Assembly (NCBI GenBank): GCA_963664585.2
Contig: CAXXEO010000015.1
Location: 6,597 to 70,596 of the forward strand
Source of the DNA: Oscillospiraceae bacterium
GTDB lineage: Bacteria > Bacillota > Clostridia > Oscillospirales > Ruminococcaceae
DNA: 64,000 nt
Reading direction: 5' to 3'
Shown: positions 5,559 through 64,000 of the stretch, one piece after another
How positions within the stretch are numbered: the stretch's first letter is position 1
Layout: each line of letters starts with the position of its first letter
Notes under the pieces: generated by a model
Told to the model about the DNA's origin: nothing
The model's input: the letters and a program-made list of their open reading frames with translations, nothing else
Databases searched by the model: none
Made by a program: the position numbers and the translations under genes

Positions 5559-5644
5559 CTTAAAAACTGGCTATATATAAAACGTCATTTTCTTCCCCCG
5601 CCTTCGGCGGTGGAAGAAATCACAAGCTTGTTTTCAAGTTAATC
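5546..5644 (+). repeat. F1 repeat copy, orientation A, split by IS30-family copy 1 (remaining 11 bp at 6698..6708)
   Basis: The F1 sequence runs to ...CAAGTTAATC, then the IS end GCTACATTG. AATCAACTATA resumes after the IS. Confidence 0.9.
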
Positions 5645-6697
5645 GCTACATTGTAAAATGAAATGCGACAGAAAAAAGATAGCCCAAGGCAGCCAAAACG
5701 TGTAGAATAGAGTTTGCAACAACAACATTCACACAAGGAGGCAGCCATGAGCCACCACCATTTTACAACATTCGAACGAGGAAAGATAGAGGAACTCCGT
5801 CAAATCGGATATACGACCCGGAAAATCGCATCACGTCTGGGATGTCACCACAGCAGTATCGCTAGAGAATTGAAACGTTTTTGCGGTGCCCGAGCGTATA
5901 ACGCAGAAGAAGCACAACTGGATTACCAGAAGAAACGGCACAACAGCAAACCTCAAGGGAAATGGAACGAGGAGTTGTGCGCAGCTGTGGCAGAAAAGCT
6001 GAAAGAGACCTGGTCGCCAGAACAAATATCACATACCGTTACTTCAAGCCAACTGAGCTTTAAAACCATATACAACTGGCTTTATGCCGGACGACTGAAC
6101 GGACTTACCGCAGATGTGCTGCGCCGTAATGGAAAAAAGAGAAGCTGTAAAAATCTTGCGCATTATGCTCGTGGTACTTCTATCCGCAAGAGACCCAAAG
6201 AGGTATATACCAGAGAAACATTTGGGCATTGGGAACTTGATACGGTGGTTTTCTCTAGGGGTTCCAGCGGTTGCTTGGCCACCTTTGTGGAATGAAAAAC
6301 AAGGTTCTATACAGCCGTTCCCATTCCTGATCGAACGGCAGCTTCCATGGAAGCTGCAATCAAGCACCTGCACACTTTATTGCCACAAGGCACATTCAAA
6401 ACAGCAACAACAGATCGTGGCGGTGAATTTGCCTGTTATGATGTAATCCAGAAAGATCTAGGCTTAACTCTTTATTTCGCTGATCCATATTGTCCGCATC
6501 AGAGAGGAAGCAATGAGTACGGTAACGGTTTGCTCAGAGAGTTCTTTCCGAAAGGTACTGTTCTGTCCACTGTTTCTCATCAAAACCTATCTTCTTCTCT
6601 TCTGCTTATAAACAACAGACCCCGAAAATGTCTTAATTGGAATACACCTTCCCAGCTCTTTCTACTCGAACTGTCGCATTTGGCTTGACAATGTAGC
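5645..6697 (+). mobile_element. IS30-family insertion sequence, copy 1 (1053 bp), transposase inactivated
   Basis: Inverted repeats GCTACATTGTAAAATGAAATGCGACAG and CTGTCGCATTTGGCTTGACAATGTAGC. AATC is duplicated on both flanks. Confidence 0.9.
5747..6688 (+). pseudogene. IS30-family transposase with a nonsense mutation
   Basis: TGA at 6293-6295 where copy 3 has CGA, splitting the ORF into 5714..6295 and 6347..6688. Confidence 0.85.
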
Positions 6698-6805
6698 AAT
6701 CAACTATAGTGCTGACGCTGATCATTCGGAGAATTGACTTAGCCTGATGCATTTTAAATCCCGCCGGTTTACCGCTATTTTGGAACGCCTTTCGACATAG
6801 AAACA

Positions 6806-8300: not shown

Positions 8301-8452
8301 ATCAATCTATACGATTAGTTCGTTTTTATTGAATTTTTCATCTTAAAGCCTTTTAAAAGCAAAGAATCATCCGATTTAAACAGCATAACCTGAAGCCATT
8401 TATCAAACAAAGTAAAGGTTGGCCTTTAAAGATATTGCTTCTATAGTTGATT

Positions 8453-9504
8453 GCTACATTGTAAAATGAAATGCGACAGAAAAAAGATAGCCCAAGGCAG
8501 CCAAAACGTGTAGAATAGAGTTTGCAACAACAACATTCACACAAGGAGGCAGCCATGAGCCACCACCATTTTACAACATTCGAACGAGGAAAGATAGAGG
8601 AACTCCGTCAAATCGGATATACGACCCGGAAAATCGCATCACGTCTGGGATGTCACACAGCAGTATCGCTAGAGAATTGAAACGTTTTTACGGTGCCCGA
8701 GCGTATAACGCAGAAGAAGCACAACTGGATTACCAGAAGAAACGGCACAACAGCAAACCTCAAGGGAAATGGAACGAGGAGTTGTGCGCAGTTGTGGCAG
8801 AAAAGCTGAAAGAGACCTGGTCGCCAGAACAAATATCACATACCGTTACTTCAAGCCAACTGAGCTTTAAAACAATATACAACTGGCTTTATGCCGGACG
8901 ACTGAACGGACTCACCGCAGATGTGCTGCGCCGTAATGGAAAAAAGAGAAGCTGTAAAAATCTTGCGCATTATGCTCGTGGTACTTCTATCCGCAAGAGA
9001 CCGAAAGAGGTATATACCAGAGAAACATTTGGGCATTGGGAACTTGATACGGTGGTTTCCTCTAGGGGTTCCAGTAGTTGCTTGGCCACCTTTGTGGAAC
9101 GAAAAACAAGGTTCTATACAGCCGTTCCCATTCCTGATCGAACGGCAGCTTCCATGGAAGCTGCAATCAAGCACCTGCACACTTTATTGCCACAAGGCAC
9201 ATTCAAAACAGCAACAACAGATCGTGGCGGTGAATTTGCCTGTTATGATGTAATCCAGAAAGATCTAGGCTTAACTCTTTATTTCGCTGATCCATATTGT
9301 CCGCGTCAGAGAGGAAGCAATGAGTACGGTAACGGTTTGCTCAGAGAGTTCTTTCCGAAAGGTACTGTTCTGTCAACTGTTTCTCATCAAAACCTGTCTT
9401 CTTCTCTTCTGCTTATAAACAATAGACCCCGAAAATGTCTTAATTGGAATACACCTTCCCAGCTCTTTCTACTCGAACTGTCGCATTTGGCTTGACAATG
9501 TAGC
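8453..9504 (+). mobile_element. IS30-family insertion sequence, copy 2 (1052 bp), transposase frameshifted
   Basis: Same inverted repeats as copy 1. Flanked by TATAGTTGATT and GATTAACTTG, so it sits inside an orientation-B F1 copy with GATT duplicated. Confidence 0.9.
8555..9495 (+). pseudogene. IS30-family transposase with a 1-nt deletion
   Basis: GATGTCACACAGC near 8656 versus GATGTCACCACAGC in copies 1 and 3. Only the 281-aa ORF 8650..9495 remains open. Confidence 0.85.
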
Positions 9505-9603
9505 GATTAACTTGAAAACAAGCTTGTGATTTCTTCCCCCGCCGAAGGCGGGGGAAGAAAATGACGTTTTAACTATAGCCAGTTTTTAAGTTAATTGGCT
9601 ATA
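9505..9603 (-). repeat. F1 repeat copy, orientation B, split by IS copy 2 (other 11 bp at 8442..8452)
   Basis: GATTAACTTGAAAACAAGCTTGTGATTTCTTCCCCCGCCGAAGGCGGGGGAAGAAAATGACG...TTAATTGGCTATA. The loop reads GAA on the top strand. Confidence 0.9.
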
Positions 9604-14170: not shown

Positions 14171-14359
14171 TGTTTTTAAATGCACTCTATTGCAATTATC
14201 TAAAAAACGAGACTTCTATCTTTCTGCCCCGCCTGCAACTGGACAGAAGGAGTTGAAATTTATATCATATGTATTTTCCCCGTCCGAGGTGGGGAAATGA
14301 TAAATTTAACGCATTTTCTATTTTGTTAAGGTGGATTTGCAAAAAACAGTTTGGTTCAA

Positions 14360-15154: not shown

Positions 15155-15280
15155 AATCAGACCTCCTTTAATTATATCCCATACCAAACTGCGATTAAAC
15201 GATAATTCCAATGATGATTTCTCCGCTAACAGCGGCAAGGTCACAAACGAAAATTCAGTGTCATTTAAACTAAATTAAAT

Positions 15281-15384
15281 GCCTTGTAAAATCTAAATCC
15301 TTATGGCAATGGGTTAAATGTCTTTATATATTCCCCCGCCTTCGGCGGGGCAATATATAAGTTTAAGATGTTACATTGTACTAG
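15281..15384 (-). repeat. F2 repeat copy with GC hairpin core, orientation Y
   Basis: GCCTTGTAAAATCTAAATCCTTATGGCAATGGGTTAAATG...TATATTCCCCCGCCTTCGGCGGGGCAATATA...GATGTTACATTGTACTAG. Confidence 0.85.
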
Positions 15385-15396
15385 TATGGCAGCCTC

Positions 15397-16197
15397 TCAG
15401 TTCACACTATGAATATCCTTCTTGATATAAATAATATAACTTGCGAAAATGGCCAAAACAATAATAAGCGCTCCAGCAATCAGATATGGGGCTTCATAAC
15501 GTGCGTTATTAAGGATATAGGGTAAACTAAAGTACTTAAACGGCGAGATAAAACGAGCCAGATCGCTTTCTCCCGTTGCAATGATCGCGCCGAGAATATA
15601 GAACCCAAAGACAACGCCAAGCGAAACCGGAAGCACAGATTTAAGCTTTGGAAGGATAACCGAGATCATAAACCCTATTGCAAGAAAAATCAATTGGATA
15701 AACAGCAGAGTAAGGCTGATCATCAAGAACAGCTTGTTGTTGTAATCCGATGTTTTCACAATATTGGCGGTGATGGAAGCTCCAGCATAATAAAGCACAT
15801 TAGTAGCTAAAAGCATGGTAAGGGCAGCCAGAAGCTTTGCACTGACAATGGCACCACGTGAGACGGGCTTGACAAGAAGAAAATCCGCAGTTCGCTCACG
15901 CGTCTCCTTCGAAAGGATGGATACGCCGTAATTCATCGCCTGAATCGCCCCGCAGAGCGTGATAAATGAATATATCATCGAATAAAAGCCAAGAATTGTG
16001 GTAATGTTGTCAAGTGAAATACCCAGCATAGCCCGGATAGATGGCGGGTATCCACCCAGCAGCCTTTTGAAATCTTCAGCATCTTTCACAATGCTTGTAT
16101 AGACGGAAAAATAAATTACAGCGAGCGCTATGATGGCGCATGTCCATAGAATCGTCGACTTCCGCAGTGATTTAAGCTCATGTAAATACATATTCAT
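15397..16197 (-). CDS. ABC-2 type transporter permease
   Basis: 266 aa, six predicted hydrophobic segments, begins MNMYLHELKSLRKS. Confidence 0.75.
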   Translation of the reverse strand: MNMYLHELKSLRKSTILWTCAIIALAVIYFSVYTSIVKDAEDFKRLLGGYPPSIRAMLGISLDNITTILGFYSMIYSFITLCGAIQAMNYGVSILSKETRERTADFLLVKPVSRGAIVSAKLLAALTMLLATNVLYYAGASITANIVKTSDYNNKLFLMISLTLLFIQLIFLAIGFMISVILPKLKSVLPVSLGVVFGFYILGAIIATGESDLARFISPFKYFSLPYILNNARYEAPYLIAGALIIVLAIFASYIIYIKKDIHSVN

Positions 16198-18210: not shown

Positions 18211-19383
18211 TTAATGATGAAACAATCTGACTCTGGTGAATGCCATCGCAATGTTATATTTGTCACAGGTTCCAATCACATGATCATCGCGAATTGACCC
18301 GCCTGTTTGTGCGATGAATTCGACACCGCTTCTATGCGCACGTTCAATATTATCACCGAAAGGGAAGAAAGCGTCGGACCCCAATGATACTCCCATAAAT
18401 GTATCCAACCATCTTCTTTTTTCTTCATAGGTAAATGGGTCGGGTCTTTTTGTAAAAATTTCTTCCCAACAGCCATCCGAAAGAATTTGTGCGCTATCAA
18501 CGGAGAGGTAACCATCAATCGCATTGTCCCGTTCTGGACGTTGGATGCTTTCTTTAAAAGGGAGGTTTAGCACCTTGGGATTTTGGCGCAAATACCATTG
18601 ATCCGATTTATCCCCTGCCAGGCGAGTGCAATGAATTCTTGATTGCTGTCCGGCTCCAATCCCTATTGCCTGACTGTCTTTTACATAACATACAGAATTT
18701 GATTGTGTATATTTCAGGGTGAGTAATGCGATGATGAGATCAGTTTTAGCGTCACTGGGAATCTCTTTGTTCAGGGTTGGAATTTCTTGCAGTAATTCTT
18801 CTGAAATCTTCACCTCATTTGTTCCCTGTTCAAATGTAATTCCAAAAACGTCCTTTTGTTCAACCAAATTCGGTTTGTAATTTTCGTCGATCTGGATAAT
18901 CGTGTAAAGCCCCTTGCGCTTCTTTTTTAAAATGTCGAGTGCTTTTTCTTCATACTCGGGAGCGACAATGCCATCCGAAACTTCCCTGGCAATGAGCGTT
19001 GCCGTGGACACGTCGCAAATATCGGATAAAGCGATAAAGTCTCCATATGAAGACATCCTGTCCGCACCTCTAGCTCTTGCGTAAGCCGATGCCTGCGCGG
19101 ATAGCTCCAAATCATCCACGAAATATATTTTTCTTAGCGTTTTACTCAAAGGCTTACCTATCGCTGCCCCCGCTGGGCTGACATGCTTAAAAGACGCAGC
19201 CGCAGTAAAACCCGTTGCCTGTTTTAGTTCCTTTACCAATTGCCAACCGTTAAAGGCATCTAAAAGATTGATATAGCCTGGATTTCCATTCAGAATCTTT
19301 ATCGGCACCTCGCCGGTTTTCATAAATATTCTCGCTGGCTTTTGATTGGGATTGCATCCATATTTTAGTTCCATTTCAGTCAT
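18211..19383 (-). CDS. AICAR transformylase-type protein (PurH formyltransferase domain only)
   Basis: 390 aa. The MELKYGCNPNQKPARIF start and GIGAGQQSRIHCTRLA are typical of the AICARFT domain. No IMP cyclohydrolase/MGS domain. Confidence 0.75.
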   Translation of the reverse strand: MTEMELKYGCNPNQKPARIFMKTGEVPIKILNGNPGYINLLDAFNGWQLVKELKQATGFTAAASFKHVSPAGAAIGKPLSKTLRKIYFVDDLELSAQASAYARARGADRMSSYGDFIALSDICDVSTATLIAREVSDGIVAPEYEEKALDILKKKRKGLYTIIQIDENYKPNLVEQKDVFGITFEQGTNEVKISEELLQEIPTLNKEIPSDAKTDLIIALLTLKYTQSNSVCYVKDSQAIGIGAGQQSRIHCTRLAGDKSDQWYLRQNPKVLNLPFKESIQRPERDNAIDGYLSVDSAQILSDGCWEEIFTKRPDPFTYEEKRRWLDTFMGVSLGSDAFFPFGDNIERAHRSGVEFIAQTGGSIRDDHVIGTCDKYNIAMAFTRVRLFHH

Positions 19384-19413: not shown

Positions 19414-19459
19414 TAAAAAAGCCAACTATCCGGGTTGTTTGCCCAGACGGTCGGCTTTT
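19414..19459 (-). terminator. intrinsic terminator candidate
   Basis: Minus strand: AAAAGCCGAC...GTTGGCTTTTTTATTG, downstream of the flavin reductase-like gene. Confidence 0.45.
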
Positions 19460-19773
19460 ATGTCATACTCCCTTGTGGTTATCCACATCCGTCAGTAATA
19501 TGACTCTTTATTTTAGTTTAAACTCAAAATGACTGATTGTCAATGTTAAGCTATACGAAAAGTCACTGCCCTTATCCAAGTTCCATTTAACACGAATCCC
19601 AATTTCAACAGCAATGATCCACCTCTGTTTCCCCCGCCTCCGGTGGCGAAACAGAGGGAATAATTAAGTGTGATTTAGAGAAGATTCAGTATGAACGATG
19701 TAGGAAATAGGGTGATGATAAAAGGGATGTACTTATCGATCTTCACAGCCTTGTTAATGGATTTTTGTTATTT

Positions 19774-29614: not shown

Positions 29615-29700
29615 CTAGTACATTGCAAAATCTTAAACTTGTATATTCCCCCGCCTTCGGCGGGGGAATATACAAGAACACTTAACCCATTGCCATAAGT
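29615..29700 (+). repeat. F2 repeat copy with GC hairpin core, orientation X, right end diverged
   Basis: CTAGTACATTGCAAAATCTTAAACTTGTATATTCCCCCGCCTTCGGCGGGGGAATATACAAGAACACTTAACCCATTGCCATAAG. Confidence 0.85.
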
Positions 29701-33212: not shown

Positions 33213-33255
33213 CTAATCCTTTTCCCTTCATTCAAGTAATGGCACTGTCTTCTAG

Positions 33256-33319
33256 TGCTTTTAAAATCTAAATCTTTTATGGCAATGGGTTAAATATAAA
33301 AGTTGAAAATGTTGCATTG
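33256..33319 (-). repeat. F2 repeat copy without the GC hairpin, orientation Y, fused to an F1 copy
   Basis: GTGCTTTTAAAATCTAAATCTTTTATGGCAATGGGTTAAATATAAAAGTTGAAAATGTTGCATTGTA, joined directly to TAGCCAATT. Confidence 0.75.
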
Positions 33320-33423
33320 TATAGCCAATTAACTTAAAAACTGGCTATATATAACGTCATTTTCTTCCCCCGCTTTCGGCGGGGGAAGAAATCACAAGCT
33401 TGTTTTCAAGTTAATCAACTATA
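33320..33423 (+). repeat. F1 repeat copy, orientation A
   Basis: Core variant CCCCCGCTTTCGGCGGGGG. Confidence 0.9.
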
Positions 33424-33821
33424 CTAGTATTAATTCAATAAAATGATTTATTCAATTAGACCGATGATTCGCGCAGAAGATGAAACATCATAAACATTTT
33501 CTCATAGCTTTTTTAGTTATTTCAACCGTTATTAGGTGCGAATTTTGTCATTTTGTGTTACACTGATTCTGTAAGAAAAAATATTTGAAGAGCTATACTA
33601 TATCGCATTAAAAAAATATTTAAAAATGTATTTAGCGTTTGGAAATTGGAGGTGCCAAATGTAATCTCAGAAATAATCAGAAAAACCATGTCATCTATGG
33701 ATCAACAACCGGTGAGCAATGCAGTCTTACAGTTTAATTACTTTTTAACCCATGTGAATGGGTATTGGTTTCAAAGTATAATTATTTTTTCAACTATATT
33801 AATAATAAAGGGGATAATAAA

Positions 33822-33959
33822 ATGGGTGATAAAAGTATAAAAAATAATCAGGTTAAGAAAAAGAAGAAAGCAGATATCAGTACTTCATCTTCCCCGGCAT
33901 CATTCAAGCCGGTTGTAACACAGCCTGAATTAATCAAAAAGAAGAAAAAACCTCTCTAG
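33822..33959 (+). CDS. possible 45-aa Lys-rich small protein
   Basis: MGDKSIKNNQVKKKKKADISTSSSPASFKPVVTQPELIKKKKKPL behind AAAGGGGA. Its stop lies inside the F2 terminus. Coding status is uncertain. Confidence 0.25.
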   Translation: MGDKSIKNNQVKKKKKADISTSSSPASFKPVVTQPELIKKKKKPL

Positions 33960-34046
33960 TACAATGCAACATCTTAAATTTTCCCCCGCCTTCGGCGGGG
34001 GAAAATACAAAAACATTTAACCCATTGTCATAAAATACAAAGCCCT
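33956..34046 (+). repeat. F2 repeat copy with GC hairpin core, orientation X, internal deletion near the right end
   Basis: CTAGTACAATGCAACATCTTAAATTTTCCCCCGCCTTCGGCGGGGGAAAATACAAAAACATTTAACCCATTGTCATAAAATACAAAGCC. Confidence 0.85.
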
Positions 34047-34082
34047 AGTATTGATAAATAATCAAGATGAAATGAGAGCAGA

Positions 34083-40597: not shown

Positions 40598-40658
40598 CGC
40601 AATGTAACATTGTATATTCCCCCGCCTTCGGCAGGGGAATATACAAAAACGTTTAAGC
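40598..40658 (+). repeat. partial F2 repeat with GC hairpin core
   Basis: GCGCAATGTAACATTGTATATTCCCCCGCCTTCGGCAGGGGAATATACAAAAACGTTTAAGC. It lacks the TTAACCCATTGCC arm. Confidence 0.7.
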
Positions 40659-60495: not shown

Positions 60496-60504
60496 TAGTT
60501 GATT

Positions 60505-61557
60505 GCTACATTGTAAAATGAAATGCGACAGAAAAAAGATAGCCCAAGGCAGCCAAAACGTGTAGAATAGAGTTTGCAACAACAACATTCACACAAGGAG
60601 GCAGCCATGAGCCACCACCATTTTACAACATTCGAACGAGGAAAGATAGAGGAACTCCGTCAAATCGGATATACGACCCGGAAAATCGCATCACGTCTGG
60701 GATGTCACCACAGCAGTATTGCTAGAGAATTGAAACGTTTTTACGGTGCCCGAGCGTATAACGCAGAAGAAGCACAACTGGATTACCAGAAGAAACGGCA
60801 CAACAGCAAACCTCAAGGGAAATGGAACGAGGAGTTGTGCGCAGCTGTGGCAGAAAAGCTGAAAGAGACCTGGTCGCCAGAACAAATATCACATACCGTT
60901 ACTTCAAGCCAACTGAGCTTTAAAACAATATACAACTGGCTTTATGCCGGACGACTGAACGGACTCACCGCAGATGTGCTGCGCCGTAATGGAAAAAAGA
61001 GAAGCTGTAAAAATCTTGCGCATTATGCTCGTGGTACTTCTATCCACAAGAGACCCAAAGAGGTATATACCAGAGAAACATTTGGGCATTGGGAACTTGA
61101 TACGGTGGTTTTCTCTAGGGGTTCCAGCGGTTGCTTGGCCACCTTTGTGGAACGAAAAACAAGGTTCTATACAGCCGTTCCCATTCCTGATCGAACGGCA
61201 GCTTCCATGGAAGCTGCAATCAAGCACCTGCACACTTTATTGCCACAAGGCACATTCAAAACAGCAACAACAGATCGTGGCGGTGAATTTGCCTGTTATG
61301 ATGTAATCCAGAAAGATCTAGGCTTAACTCTTTATTTCGCTGATCCATATTGTCCGCATCAGAGAGGAAGCAATGAGTACGGTAACGGTTTGCTCAGAGA
61401 GTTCTTTCCGAAAGGTACTGTTCTGTCCACTGTTTCTCATCAAAACCTGTCTTCTTCTCTTCTGCTTATAAACAATAGACCCCGAAAATGTCTTAATTGG
61501 AATACACCTTCCCAGCTCTTTCTACTCGAACTGTCGCATTTGGCTTGACAATGTAGC
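60505..61557 (+). mobile_element. IS30-family insertion sequence, copy 3 (1053 bp), intact
   Basis: Same 27-bp inverted repeats. Flanked by TATAGTTGATT and GATTCACTTG (GATT duplicated), inside an orientation-B F1 copy. Confidence 0.92.
60607..61548 (+). CDS. IS30-family transposase (313 aa from ATG behind AAGGAGG)
   Basis: N-terminal HTH (FERGKIEELRQIGYTTRKIASRLGCHHSSIAREL). DDE region WELDTV ... TDRGGEF ... PHQRGSNEYGNGLLREFFPKG. Confidence 0.92.
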   Translation: MSHHHFTTFERGKIEELRQIGYTTRKIASRLGCHHSSIARELKRFYGARAYNAEEAQLDYQKKRHNSKPQGKWNEELCAAVAEKLKETWSPEQISHTVTSSQLSFKTIYNWLYAGRLNGLTADVLRRNGKKRSCKNLAHYARGTSIHKRPKEVYTRETFGHWELDTVVFSRGSSGCLATFVERKTRFYTAVPIPDRTAASMEAAIKHLHTLLPQGTFKTATTDRGGEFACYDVIQKDLGLTLYFADPYCPHQRGSNEYGNGLLREFFPKGTVLSTVSHQNLSSSLLLINNRPRKCLNWNTPSQLFLLELSHLA

Positions 61558-61656
61558 GATTCACTTGAAAACAAGCTTGTATTTTCTTCCCTCGCCTTCG
61601 GCGGGGGAAGAAAATGACGTTTTATATATAGCCAGTTTTTAAGTGAATTGGCTATA
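61558..61656 (-). repeat. F1 repeat copy, orientation B, split by IS copy 3 (other 11 bp at 60494..60504)
   Basis: GATTCACTTGAAAACAAGCTTGTATTTTCTTCCCTCGCCTTCGGCGGGGGAAGAAAATGACG...GAATTGGCTATA. Loop TTC on the top strand. Confidence 0.9.
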
Positions 61657-62613: not shown

Positions 62614-62670
62614 TGTTTCCTTTCTCAGCCCCTTTTTGTTAGTTTATCATCTTTTCGCTCACATTGAAAC

Positions 62671-62776
62671 TATAGTTGATTAACTTGAAAACAAGCTTAT
62701 GATTTCTTCCCCCGCCTTCGGCGGGGGAAGAAAATGGAGTTTTATATATAGCCAGTTTTTAAGTTAATTGGCTATA
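62671..62776 (-). repeat. F1 repeat copy, orientation B, fused to an F2 copy
   Basis: Consensus core with TTC on the top strand. It ends GGCTATA, immediately followed by GTACAATGCAAC. Confidence 0.9.
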
Positions 62777-62878
62777 GTACAATGCAACATCATAAACTTG
62801 TAGTTTTTCGCGCCTTCGGCGGGGGAAACTACAAGAACATTTAACCCATTGCCATAAAAGATTTTGATTTTACAAGCC
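62777..62878 (+). repeat. F2 repeat copy with GC hairpin core, orientation X
   Basis: GTACAATGCAACATCATAAACTTGTAGTTTTTCGCGCCTTCGGCGGGGGAAACTACAAGAACATTTAACCCATTGCCATAAAAGATTTTGATTTTACAAGCC. Confidence 0.85.
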
Positions 62879-63078
62879 ACTAGAATTATGATTGGAGCCA
62901 GATCAAGAAAATCATTTATATCAGGATATCGATACCTATTTTGGACGAGTGAAATCATTTCTCAATATGCTTTGTGTTAGAATTACTAAGCATTTCTATA
63001 AATTTATATCTATACTTTATGGTCGCATGAATAAAAAAACGTTATAATAAAAATAAGAATAAAGAGGAGGTACATAAA

Positions 63079-63690
63079 GTGTCTATTGATGTTTCATTGT
63101 TTTTAGAAAACCTAGAAAAAAAGGGTTTTAAAACAAAGCACGTAAAAACCGCCAAAGATGCATGTAGTTTTCTTCTTTCTGAGATCGGCATCAATTCTTC
63201 AGTCGGAATCGGAGGATCAATGACGATTGAAGAACTTGGCATTGCGGATGCTCTTGCCGAACGGGGTAATCCTGTTTTTTGGCACTGGAAAGTTCCTTCG
63301 GAAAAAGCAAAGGAAACCAGAGAAAAAGCAAATTCATCCGATGTCTATCTCTGTTCCACGAACGCAGTTTCCATGGGCGGAACCTTTTACAATATTGACG
63401 GAACCGGAAACCGAGTTGCAGCCATTTCTTATGGAGGACAGCCTCTTTTTATCGTGATGAGCACAAGCAAAATTGCCCAAACGGAAAATGATGCAATGAA
63501 AAGGGTGAAGGATATAGCCTGTACACTCAATGCAAGGCGACTAAAACTCAATACACCCTGTGCAATAACAGGAAAATGTATTGATTGCTCTTCACCACAG
63601 CGTTTTTGCAATGTTACCTGCATTCTTGAAAGGCCAACTGGGAACCGAGAAGTACATATTGTGGTTGTAGATGAGAAACTTGGGTATTAG
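63079..63690 (+). CDS. LUD-domain (lactate utilisation protein-like, DUF162) protein
   Basis: GTG start behind AAAGAGGAGG. 203 aa. VGIGGSMTIEELGI and a C-terminal Cys cluster CAITGKCIDCSSPQRFC. Confidence 0.65.
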   Translation: MSIDVSLFLENLEKKGFKTKHVKTAKDACSFLLSEIGINSSVGIGGSMTIEELGIADALAERGNPVFWHWKVPSEKAKETREKANSSDVYLCSTNAVSMGGTFYNIDGTGNRVAAISYGGQPLFIVMSTSKIAQTENDAMKRVKDIACTLNARRLKLNTPCAITGKCIDCSSPQRFCNVTCILERPTGNREVHIVVVDEKLGY

Positions 63691-63925: not shown

Positions 63926-63982
63926 CTAGTACAATGTAACATCTTTAACCCATTGCCATAAAAGATTTGGATTTTACATGGC
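63926..63982 (+). repeat. F2 repeat copy without the GC hairpin, orientation X
   Basis: CTAGTACAATGTAACATCTTTAACCCATTGCCATAAAAGATTTGGATTTTACATGGC. Confidence 0.8.
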
Positions 63983-64000
63983 GCAAAAAAAAGCAGAGAC

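Follow-up and report, generated by a model that had tools for sequence, protein, structure and literature searches.

F2, an old CTAG-flanked and hairpin-centred MITE that probably does not derive from the resident IS30-family element

The short repeat F2, present as seven copies and one relic within the window (the whole 64-kb stretch of DNA that was analysed), is probably an old MITE centred on a hairpin and flanked by CTAG. Judging from sequence comparison, it would have been spread by a transposase encoded outside the window and would not derive from the IS30-family element that resides there. F2 itself matters little, being one more lineage-restricted MITE family in a poorly sampled Clostridia genome. 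The locus as a whole naturally and cleanly documents three layers of mobile DNA that were laid down in a fixed order, namely F2, a second MITE family called F1, and the IS30-family element.

F2 copies and their surroundings

The window has a G+C content of about 42% and is unusually rich in short repeats, with F1, F2 and three 1053-bp copies of the insertion sequence (IS). The closest homologues of its genes are found in Clostridia. For instance, the ABC-2 permease encoded at 15397-16197 shares 80% identity with a protein of Clostridium arbusti, and further homologues come from Ruminiclostridium and Desulfitobacterium.

With the F2 copy at 15281 as query, BLAST recovered the copies at 29615 (E = 1e-25), 62777 (5e-23) and 33956 (4e-18), and the shorter copies were also matched. 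BLAST and alignment together bore out the positions and the size of about 105 bp given for F2 in a preliminary description of the window, including the partial copy at 40598 and the relic near 14262. The end sequences given there are correct, as is the left end of the IS (GCTACATTGTAAAATGAAATGC). The F2 material studied consists of these eight copies, relic counted, from a single 64-kb window (Table 1). They are 58-110 bp long, are all intergenic and have no coding capacity. Copy 1 lies between two co-directional ABC-2 permease genes (neighbours assigned by Pfam) and copy 2 upstream of an AtuA-family gene, while copy 5 starts 12 bp past the stop codon of a MatE gene.

Table 1 Mobile elements and repeats discussed in the text (window positions unless a contig or plasmid is named)
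Feature	Coordinates	Strand	Description
F2 copy 1	15280-15384	-	full length, 105 bp; CTAG at left tip (15381-15384), absent at right tip
F2 copy 2	29615-29699	+	left tip and hairpin intact; right arm gone after CCATAAG
F2 copy 3	33252-33427	-	short form, hairpin deleted; CTAG on both sides (33252-33255, 33424-33427)
F2 copy 4	33956-34048	+	93 bp, small internal deletions; CTAG on both sides (33956-33959, 34045-34048)
F2 copy 5	40598-40657	+	partial: hairpin and inner parts of both arms
F2 copy 6	62670-62883	+	full length; CTAG on both sides; nested F1 at 62671-62776
F2 copy 7	63926-63983	+	short form; hairpin deletion junction differs from copy 3; CTAG at left tip only
F2 relic	14262-14330	+	degenerate; decayed hairpin, then ATTTAACGCATT
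F1 in F2 copy 3	33320-33423	+	flanked by duplicated TA
F1 in F2 copy 6 (left CTAG)	62671-62776	-	flanked by duplicated TA
IS30-family IS, intact	60505-61557	+	1053 bp; 27-nt IRs; ORF 60574/60607-61548; GATT duplication, in F1 terminus
IS30-family IS, disrupted ORF	5645-6697	+	same F1 target; AATC duplication
IS30-family IS, shortened ORF	8453-9504	+	same F1 target; GATT duplication
Hairpin stem elsewhere	L148, 5950-6040		F1-like end
Hairpin stem elsewhere	Ruminococcus albus 7 plasmid pRUMAL02 (L153), 177676-177998		looks MITE-like

Ends, central hairpin and CTAG flanks

The full consensus of F2 reads CTAGTACAATGCAACATCTTAAACTTGTATATTCCCCCGCCTTCGGCGGGGGAATATACAAGAACATTTAACCCATTGCCATAAAAGATTTAGATTTTACAAGGCACTAG and comes to about 110 bp with its CTAG flanks. 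It is laid out as CTAG-TACAATGYAACATCTTAAAC, followed further in by the hairpin CTTGTATATTCCCCCGCC-TTC-GGCGGGGGAATATACAAG and, at the other end, by GATTTAGATTTTACAAGSCA-CTAG. The left end has the consensus TACAATGYAACAT and the right end the consensus TGCCTTGTAAAAT. At the tips, the left side begins with (CTAG/TA)TACAATGYAACATC... and the right side closes with ...GATTTTACAAGSCA, which reads TGCCTTGTAAAATC... inward. When the copies are aligned together with their flanks, the left boundary is sharp, as similarity begins abruptly at CTAGTACAATG in all six copies that keep the left end. On the right, similarity ends after ...TTTTACAAGSCA. The 24-nt ends form imperfect inverted repeats (CTAGTACAATGCAACATCTTAAAC versus CTAGTGCCTTGTAAAATCTAAATC), which agree at 17 of 24 positions with CTAG included and at 13 of 20 without it (P = 0.001).

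At the centre of F2, an 18-bp stem and a loop of 3 nt form a perfect hairpin, and the DNA fold of the consensus has an energy of -24 kcal/mol (z = -7.6). Two copies have lost this hairpin. In the copy at 63926, CATC is joined directly to TTTAACCC, and at 33320 the junction runs from ...TTTTATAT to TTAACCC. Since these junctions differ, the two losses are independent deletions of the palindrome and do not represent an ancestral form without a hairpin. No Rfam family matched F2, and the stem has no T-run downstream and is therefore no intrinsic terminator; the identification of the hairpin as a known RNA or a terminator was rejected.

CTAG is scarce in the window (63 sites in 64 kb). It is found at the left tip of F2 in six of six copies and at both tips in three of the five copies that have a right end, being missing on the right in the other two. 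Outside CTAG, no direct repeat was detected in the three copies with CTAG on both sides, and the idea that CTAG is part of the terminal inverted repeat (TIR), with the duplication further out, was rejected on that ground. Because the flank is always the same palindrome, CTAG is not separable from an extension of the TIR. Most simply, F2 would have inserted at CTAG with a duplication of either the whole tetranucleotide or its central TA; the flanks fit C-TA-[F2]-TA-G and, equally, a 4-bp CTAG duplication. By a rough reckoning, the retention of CTAG on both sides in three of five copies plausibly fits an identity of 87% between copies.

F2 is thus short (<300 bp) and non-coding, carries TIRs and occurs in multiple dispersed copies, as is expected of a MITE. 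With its sharp ends and the CTAG on both sides of three of the five copies that have a right end, these features uphold the earlier reading of F2 as a non-autonomous element. It is the structure of the repeat that suggests its past mobility.

Nested insertions and the relative age of the repeats

The F1 family has a length of 106 bp and about 15 copies in 64 kb, with the ends TATAGCCAATTAAC... and ...GTTAATCAACTATA (TATAG...CTATA). Two of these copies lie in the left tip of an F2 copy. In F2 copy 6, F1 occupies the TA of the left CTAG, giving C-TA[F1]TA-G, and the tetranucleotide is split into a C at 62670 and a TAG at 62775-62777. In F2 copy 3, the TA that F1 interrupts belongs to GTAC and lies 2 bp deeper inside the element, with CTAG following past F1. 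Excising F1 together with one TA gives back CTAGTACAATGC at both sites. The nested insertions are direct evidence that F1 is a TA-duplicating MITE. They also show that F1 arrived after F2 at both sites, the other F2 copies being its empty sites. What had previously been described, from two F2 copies next to the TATAGCC end of F1, as one and the same F1-F2 composite consists of separate F1 insertions at adjacent TA dinucleotides of the F2 tip. Both insertions share their relative orientation, and a preference of F1 for CTAGTAC-like sites is hinted at.

The transposase of the IS (313 aa from 60607-61548) contains the Pfam domains HTH_38 and rve, and homologues that share about 50% identity with it bear the annotation IS30-family transposase. 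The IS ends are GCTACATTGTAAAATGAAATGCGACAG (IRL) and, as reverse complement, GCTACATTGTCAAGCCAAATGCGACAG (IRR). The metagenomic contig L136 carries an IS copy that is 98% identical to the one in the window. The three window copies and the L136 copy all inserted at one position of the F1 terminus, TATAGTTGATT^AACTTG, each with a perfect 4-bp GATT/AATC duplication. These insertions are located at 5641-6701, 8449-9508 and 60501-61561 in the window and at 9885-10954 in L136. The target is the near-palindrome AGTTGATTAACT. IS30 transposase is known to pick nearly palindromic hot spots or its own IRs by itself, and the duplications made by E. coli IS30 are 2 bp long (PMC9333248). Relatives of the IS from other metagenomes (L142-L148, 68-79% amino acid identity) are also flanked by F1-like termini. 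Together with the four of four insertions in the F1 terminus, this suggests that the whole IS30 clade appears to use the end of a MITE as an insertion hot spot. Such a clade would be useful for studying target choice in the IS30 family and the build-up of repeat-dense genomes.

The order of nesting is F2, then F1, then the IS, and the pairwise identities agree with it. Copies of F2 are about 87% identical and differ by many deletions and indels. Among F1 copies the identity is 94%, and among IS copies it is 98.4-99.1%.

The shared hairpin module

F1 and F2 contain an identical 23-nt hairpin core, TTCCCCCGCC-TTC-GGCGGGGGAA, despite their unrelated ends. Nineteen such hairpins occur in the window, e.g., at 2498, 9537, 15334, 22936, 31220, 36496, 51299 and 62710, and none was found there outside F1 or F2. 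In 16 of the 19, the plus strand has TTC or TTT as the 3-nt loop, regardless of the orientation of the element. The loop is flipped in six of the nine copies expected to show GAA on the plus strand, compared with none of the other ten (one-sided Fisher test, about 0.003). Loop polarity had no link to the direction of neighbouring genes. In F2 copy 6, the same change from TATAT to TAGTT is present in both arms of the hairpin.

The same stem (CCCCCGCC/GGCGGGGG) is found with other loops (TGC, GTA) in other Clostridia (Table 1). The element of R. albus is bordered by two adjacent coding sequences, each with the annotation polysaccharide pyruvyl transferase family protein, and it may have split a single gene. 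The common core in two MITE families, the co-variation of the arms and the loop flips point to a hairpin that is selected separately. Still, it is doubtful that the GC hairpin of F2 is such a separately selected module and not passive filling of the MITE. These signs hint at a constraint on a DNA hairpin carried by mobile elements, one that would be strand-specific and possibly replication-linked.

Comparison of F2 with the ends of the IS30-family element

According to the preliminary description, both F2 ends share the inward-facing block TACATTG(T/C)AAAAT with the IS, and F2 is a candidate for a MITE that the IS30-family transposase could mobilise. The alignment of all F2 termini with IRL and IRR retained part of the first statement. 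The AT-rich 13-nt block at IRL positions 3-15 (TACATTGTAAAAT) is matched at 10-12 of 13 positions by the left ends of F2 and at 7-11 of 13 by the right ends, with the T after CTAG aligned to IRL position 3, and the match is indeed inward-facing at both ends. The exact block (TACATTGCAAAAT) occurs in one left end only, that of the F2 copy at 29615. IRR (TACATTGTCAAGC) matches the F2 ends poorly (5-9 of 13), and at IR positions 16-27 the agreement is at chance level (1-5 of 12).

The likeness was evaluated with a joint statistic over both ends, in the same register and with the best 13-nt window. Column shuffles attained the observed 21 of 26 matches to IRL in 0.3% of cases, and the share was also 0.3% for random 27-mers from the window that served as pseudo-IRs (P of about 0.003). 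Single F2 ends had local scores of 6-11, for which random 30-mers gave P = 0.024 at a score of at least 9 and P = 0.001 at a score of at least 11. The likeness to IRL, which was spotted post hoc, thus nominally, if modestly, exceeds AT-rich noise. The terminal similarity proved better than that of shuffled sequence, so that one of the refuting outcomes named in the preliminary description did not occur, and the IS30 idea is consequently weakened rather than refuted.

The weakening comes from several sides. An inner IR box, AA.(T/C)GC(G/A)(A/C)CA (AA.TGCGACA in this IS), keeps a constant distance from the tip across six lineages, i.e., the window IS, L143/L148, the Paenibacillus, Brevibacillus and Listeria elements, and E. 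coli IS30. The IRs were recovered from the relatives at 68-79% amino acid identity (L142-L148), from those at about 50% (Paenibacillus, Brevibacillus and Listeria plasmids) and from E. coli IS30, whose IR (TGTAGATTCAATTGGTCAACGCAACAG) lies directly upstream of the annotated IS30 transposase. In F2, this box is absent at the expected register, with 1-5 of 12 matches. An alignment by hand of the F2 left end (AATGCAACA) to the inner box gave 8 of 14 matches, which is below the outer block and at the wrong distance from the tip, and it was rejected. Furthermore, the 13-nt match requires a shift of 2 nt from the tips, and in that register the flanks of F2 are CT and AG, without a duplication. If CTAG is taken as the duplication, the tip of F2 is the T of TACAATG, so that the tip-anchored identity is only 5-9 of 27.

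F2 has no similarity to the interior of the IS (best local score 11 versus 12.3 ± 1.5 in shuffles, P = 0.93). The possibility that it holds internal IS sequence was rejected on this result, and matches of 11-14 nt inside the transposase genes of relatives are due to chance. As for the targets, none of the seven F2 copies lies in an F1 terminus, where all four IS copies are found. Since the IS30 transposase selects its target itself (PMC9333248), the targets of a MITE that this enzyme mobilises should be the same as those of the IS. This mismatch is weakened, as F2 may predate F1, but it still counts.

Origin of F2

Descent from the resident element would make F2 a non-autonomous IS30-family derivative with two IRL-like ends, which the transposase at 60574-61548, or its ancestor, would mobilise or have mobilised in trans. 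What links F2 to IS30 elements is the outer 13-nt IRL block, matched by both ends facing inward with the joint probability given above; a possible 4-bp duplication and a palindromic target would agree with such a link. Within the IRL block, ATTGTAA(A/T)AT is conserved in distant relatives; the CTAG duplication would have the same length as that of the resident IS, and IS30-family enzymes favour palindromic targets (PMC9333248). The same kind of end test applied to F2 and F1 gave only about 0.45. Nevertheless, such a descent is unlikely, and an IS30-mobilisable MITE, as first proposed, is not supported, as the shift, the inner box, the body and the target all disagree. The inner box seen family-wide is missing from F2. 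The register that fits the IS leaves no target duplication, and the one that makes CTAG the duplication takes most of the IR match away. IRR is a poor match, and the two elements have no common internal sequence. Their targets differ, with the IS entering the F1 terminus at GATT, and the IS copies are much younger than F2. No description of an IS30-family MITE was found in the literature searched. The likeness to IRL is most likely a coincidence of AT-rich ends, or at most a remote relic without function. A tempting but weak claim to a first IS30-derived MITE is thereby removed.

F1 offers another possible relationship. Both families could be sister MITEs of one TA-duplicating transposase of the IS630/Tc1-mariner type, with CTAG being a TA in a preferred context. 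F1 duplicates TA, in one case inside CTAG, and the F2 flanks are compatible with C-TA-[element]-TA-G. Both elements measure about 105 bp and have the 23-nt hairpin core TTCCCCCGCCTTCGGCGGGGGAA in common. A preference of IS630 for TA within 5'-CTAG-3' was described by Tenzen and Ohtsubo (1991, as cited in PMC2170065). However, F1 and F2 have terminal repeats that bear no relation to each other (local score 6 and P of about 0.45 over all four end pairs), which makes recognition of both by a single enzyme unlikely. F1 is found in many TA contexts and F2 in CTAG only, and their ages differ. A common enzyme is hence quite improbable, and F2 as a relative of F1 was rejected on account of the unrelated ends. 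The hairpin suggests a third reading, in which F2 is a REP-like structured repeat that the host maintains around the GC hairpin, spread by another route such as a Y1/RAYT-type enzyme or recombination, and retained because of some role as DNA or as RNA. In favour of it are the high stability of the hairpin, matching changes in both arms of two copies that preserve the pairing, and a loop polarity biased to one chromosome strand. The hairpin core also recurs in F1, an unrelated family, and in the F1-like elements from other Clostridia, and a Y1 transposase gene is present in the related contig L136. Against this stand the genuine TIRs and the direct CTAG flanks, which Y1 elements lack, and the two copies that persist without a hairpin. 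The hairpin never occurs outside F1 or F2 in the window, has no T-run after its stem and has no match in Rfam. A host-maintained repeat of this kind is very unlikely.

The favoured reading, an old MITE moved by an enzyme from outside the window, would imply the following course of events. F2 would have transposed by a cut-and-paste or a copy-and-paste route, with a transposase encoded outside the window acting in trans. This enzyme would insert at the palindrome CTAG and duplicate CTAG or the central TA, a behaviour of IS5-type and IS630/Tc1-mariner-type enzymes, unlike that of the resident IS30-family element. Once F2 had stopped moving, its copies gathered about 13% substitutions and suffered truncations, and the palindromic centre was lost twice independently. 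Two copies were later hit by the younger F1, and F1 has in turn become the specific target of the still younger IS. Judged by its target only, the F2 enzyme may have been IS630-like or IS5-like. Among 20 ORFs scanned against Pfam (the neighbours of F2 and the low-GC stretch at 31-38 kb), there was no other transposase that could be the parent of F2, and no candidate for a parent IS with F2-like ends was found anywhere.

Several known elements resemble F2 in part. MITEPsy1 of Pseudomonas syringae, which derives from the IS5-family ISPsy2, is 100 nt long with 18-nt terminal repeats and a 4-nt CTAG/YTAA duplication (PMC3189936). It belongs to the same size class and has the same flanking tetranucleotide. 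Its ends (GGAAGGTCTGAAAAAGCC, GGAAGGT...) are unlike those of F2 (TACAATG.../TGCCTTG...), MITEPsy1 being the only IS5-derived MITE compared. MITEs of the IS630/Tc1-mariner type insert at TA, and the F2 flanks fit this as C-TA-[F2]-TA-G, an assignment by target alone. The Correia elements (CREE) of Neisseria (PMC3898611) and the RUP elements of streptococci are, like F2, non-coding sequences of about 100-155 bp with TIRs of about 25 nt and no transposase of their own. They are also densely dispersed in intergenic DNA, and have long and short forms that arise by internal deletion. They have no sequence relationship to F2, come from another phylum and lack the long, perfect GC hairpin that F2 has in its middle. 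Moreover, Correia elements resemble F1 in duplicating TA in a variety of contexts, whereas F2 is always found beside CTAG.

Distribution beyond the window

The most conserved 17-mer of F2, TTAACCCATTGCCATAA, was used as a search seed. In 185,579 species genomes it gave 58 singleton matches, and in metagenome contigs 76 matches, none of which extended past the seed. Two scans of viral contigs with the F2 seed returned five single matches and zero, respectively. Plasmids contained short chance matches and the hairpin core in R. albus, and no F2. Contig L136 has four F1 copies and no F2 in 19 kb, and L059, which holds the closest relative of the flanking gene (83% amino acid identity), has neither F1 nor F2 nor the IS in 20 kb. 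As these searches revealed no F2 beyond the window, the family is confined to this lineage on present data. In the protein collection, no relatives above 90% identity exist for the permease (15397-16197) or for the LUD-domain protein encoded at 63079-63690, both of which form single-member clusters.

Further observations in the window

In L059, 35 bp separate the two permease genes, compared with about 240 bp, including F2, in the window; the flanks are too diverged to be aligned. A segment of about 125 bp at 15156-15280 is absent from L059. It connects F2 copy 1 to the probable TTG start codon of the permease gene downstream. The ribosome binding site of this gene (AAAGGAGG) lies near 15165. 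The segment, which has a small hairpin (CCGCTGTTAGCGG), may represent what is left of another insertion.

An intergenic stretch of low G+C content (35%) at about 31-34 kb, with two F2 copies and one F1, is the place around which gene orientation turns from mostly minus to mostly plus and the GC skew reverses its sign. This switch could be related to replication or mark a point of rearrangement. There was no dnaA-type gene among the ORFs checked. Finally, a ZMP/ZTP riboswitch (Rfam RF01750; 56 bits versus a gathering score of 39) is located at 19434-19509 on the minus strand, upstream of the gene at 18211-19383.
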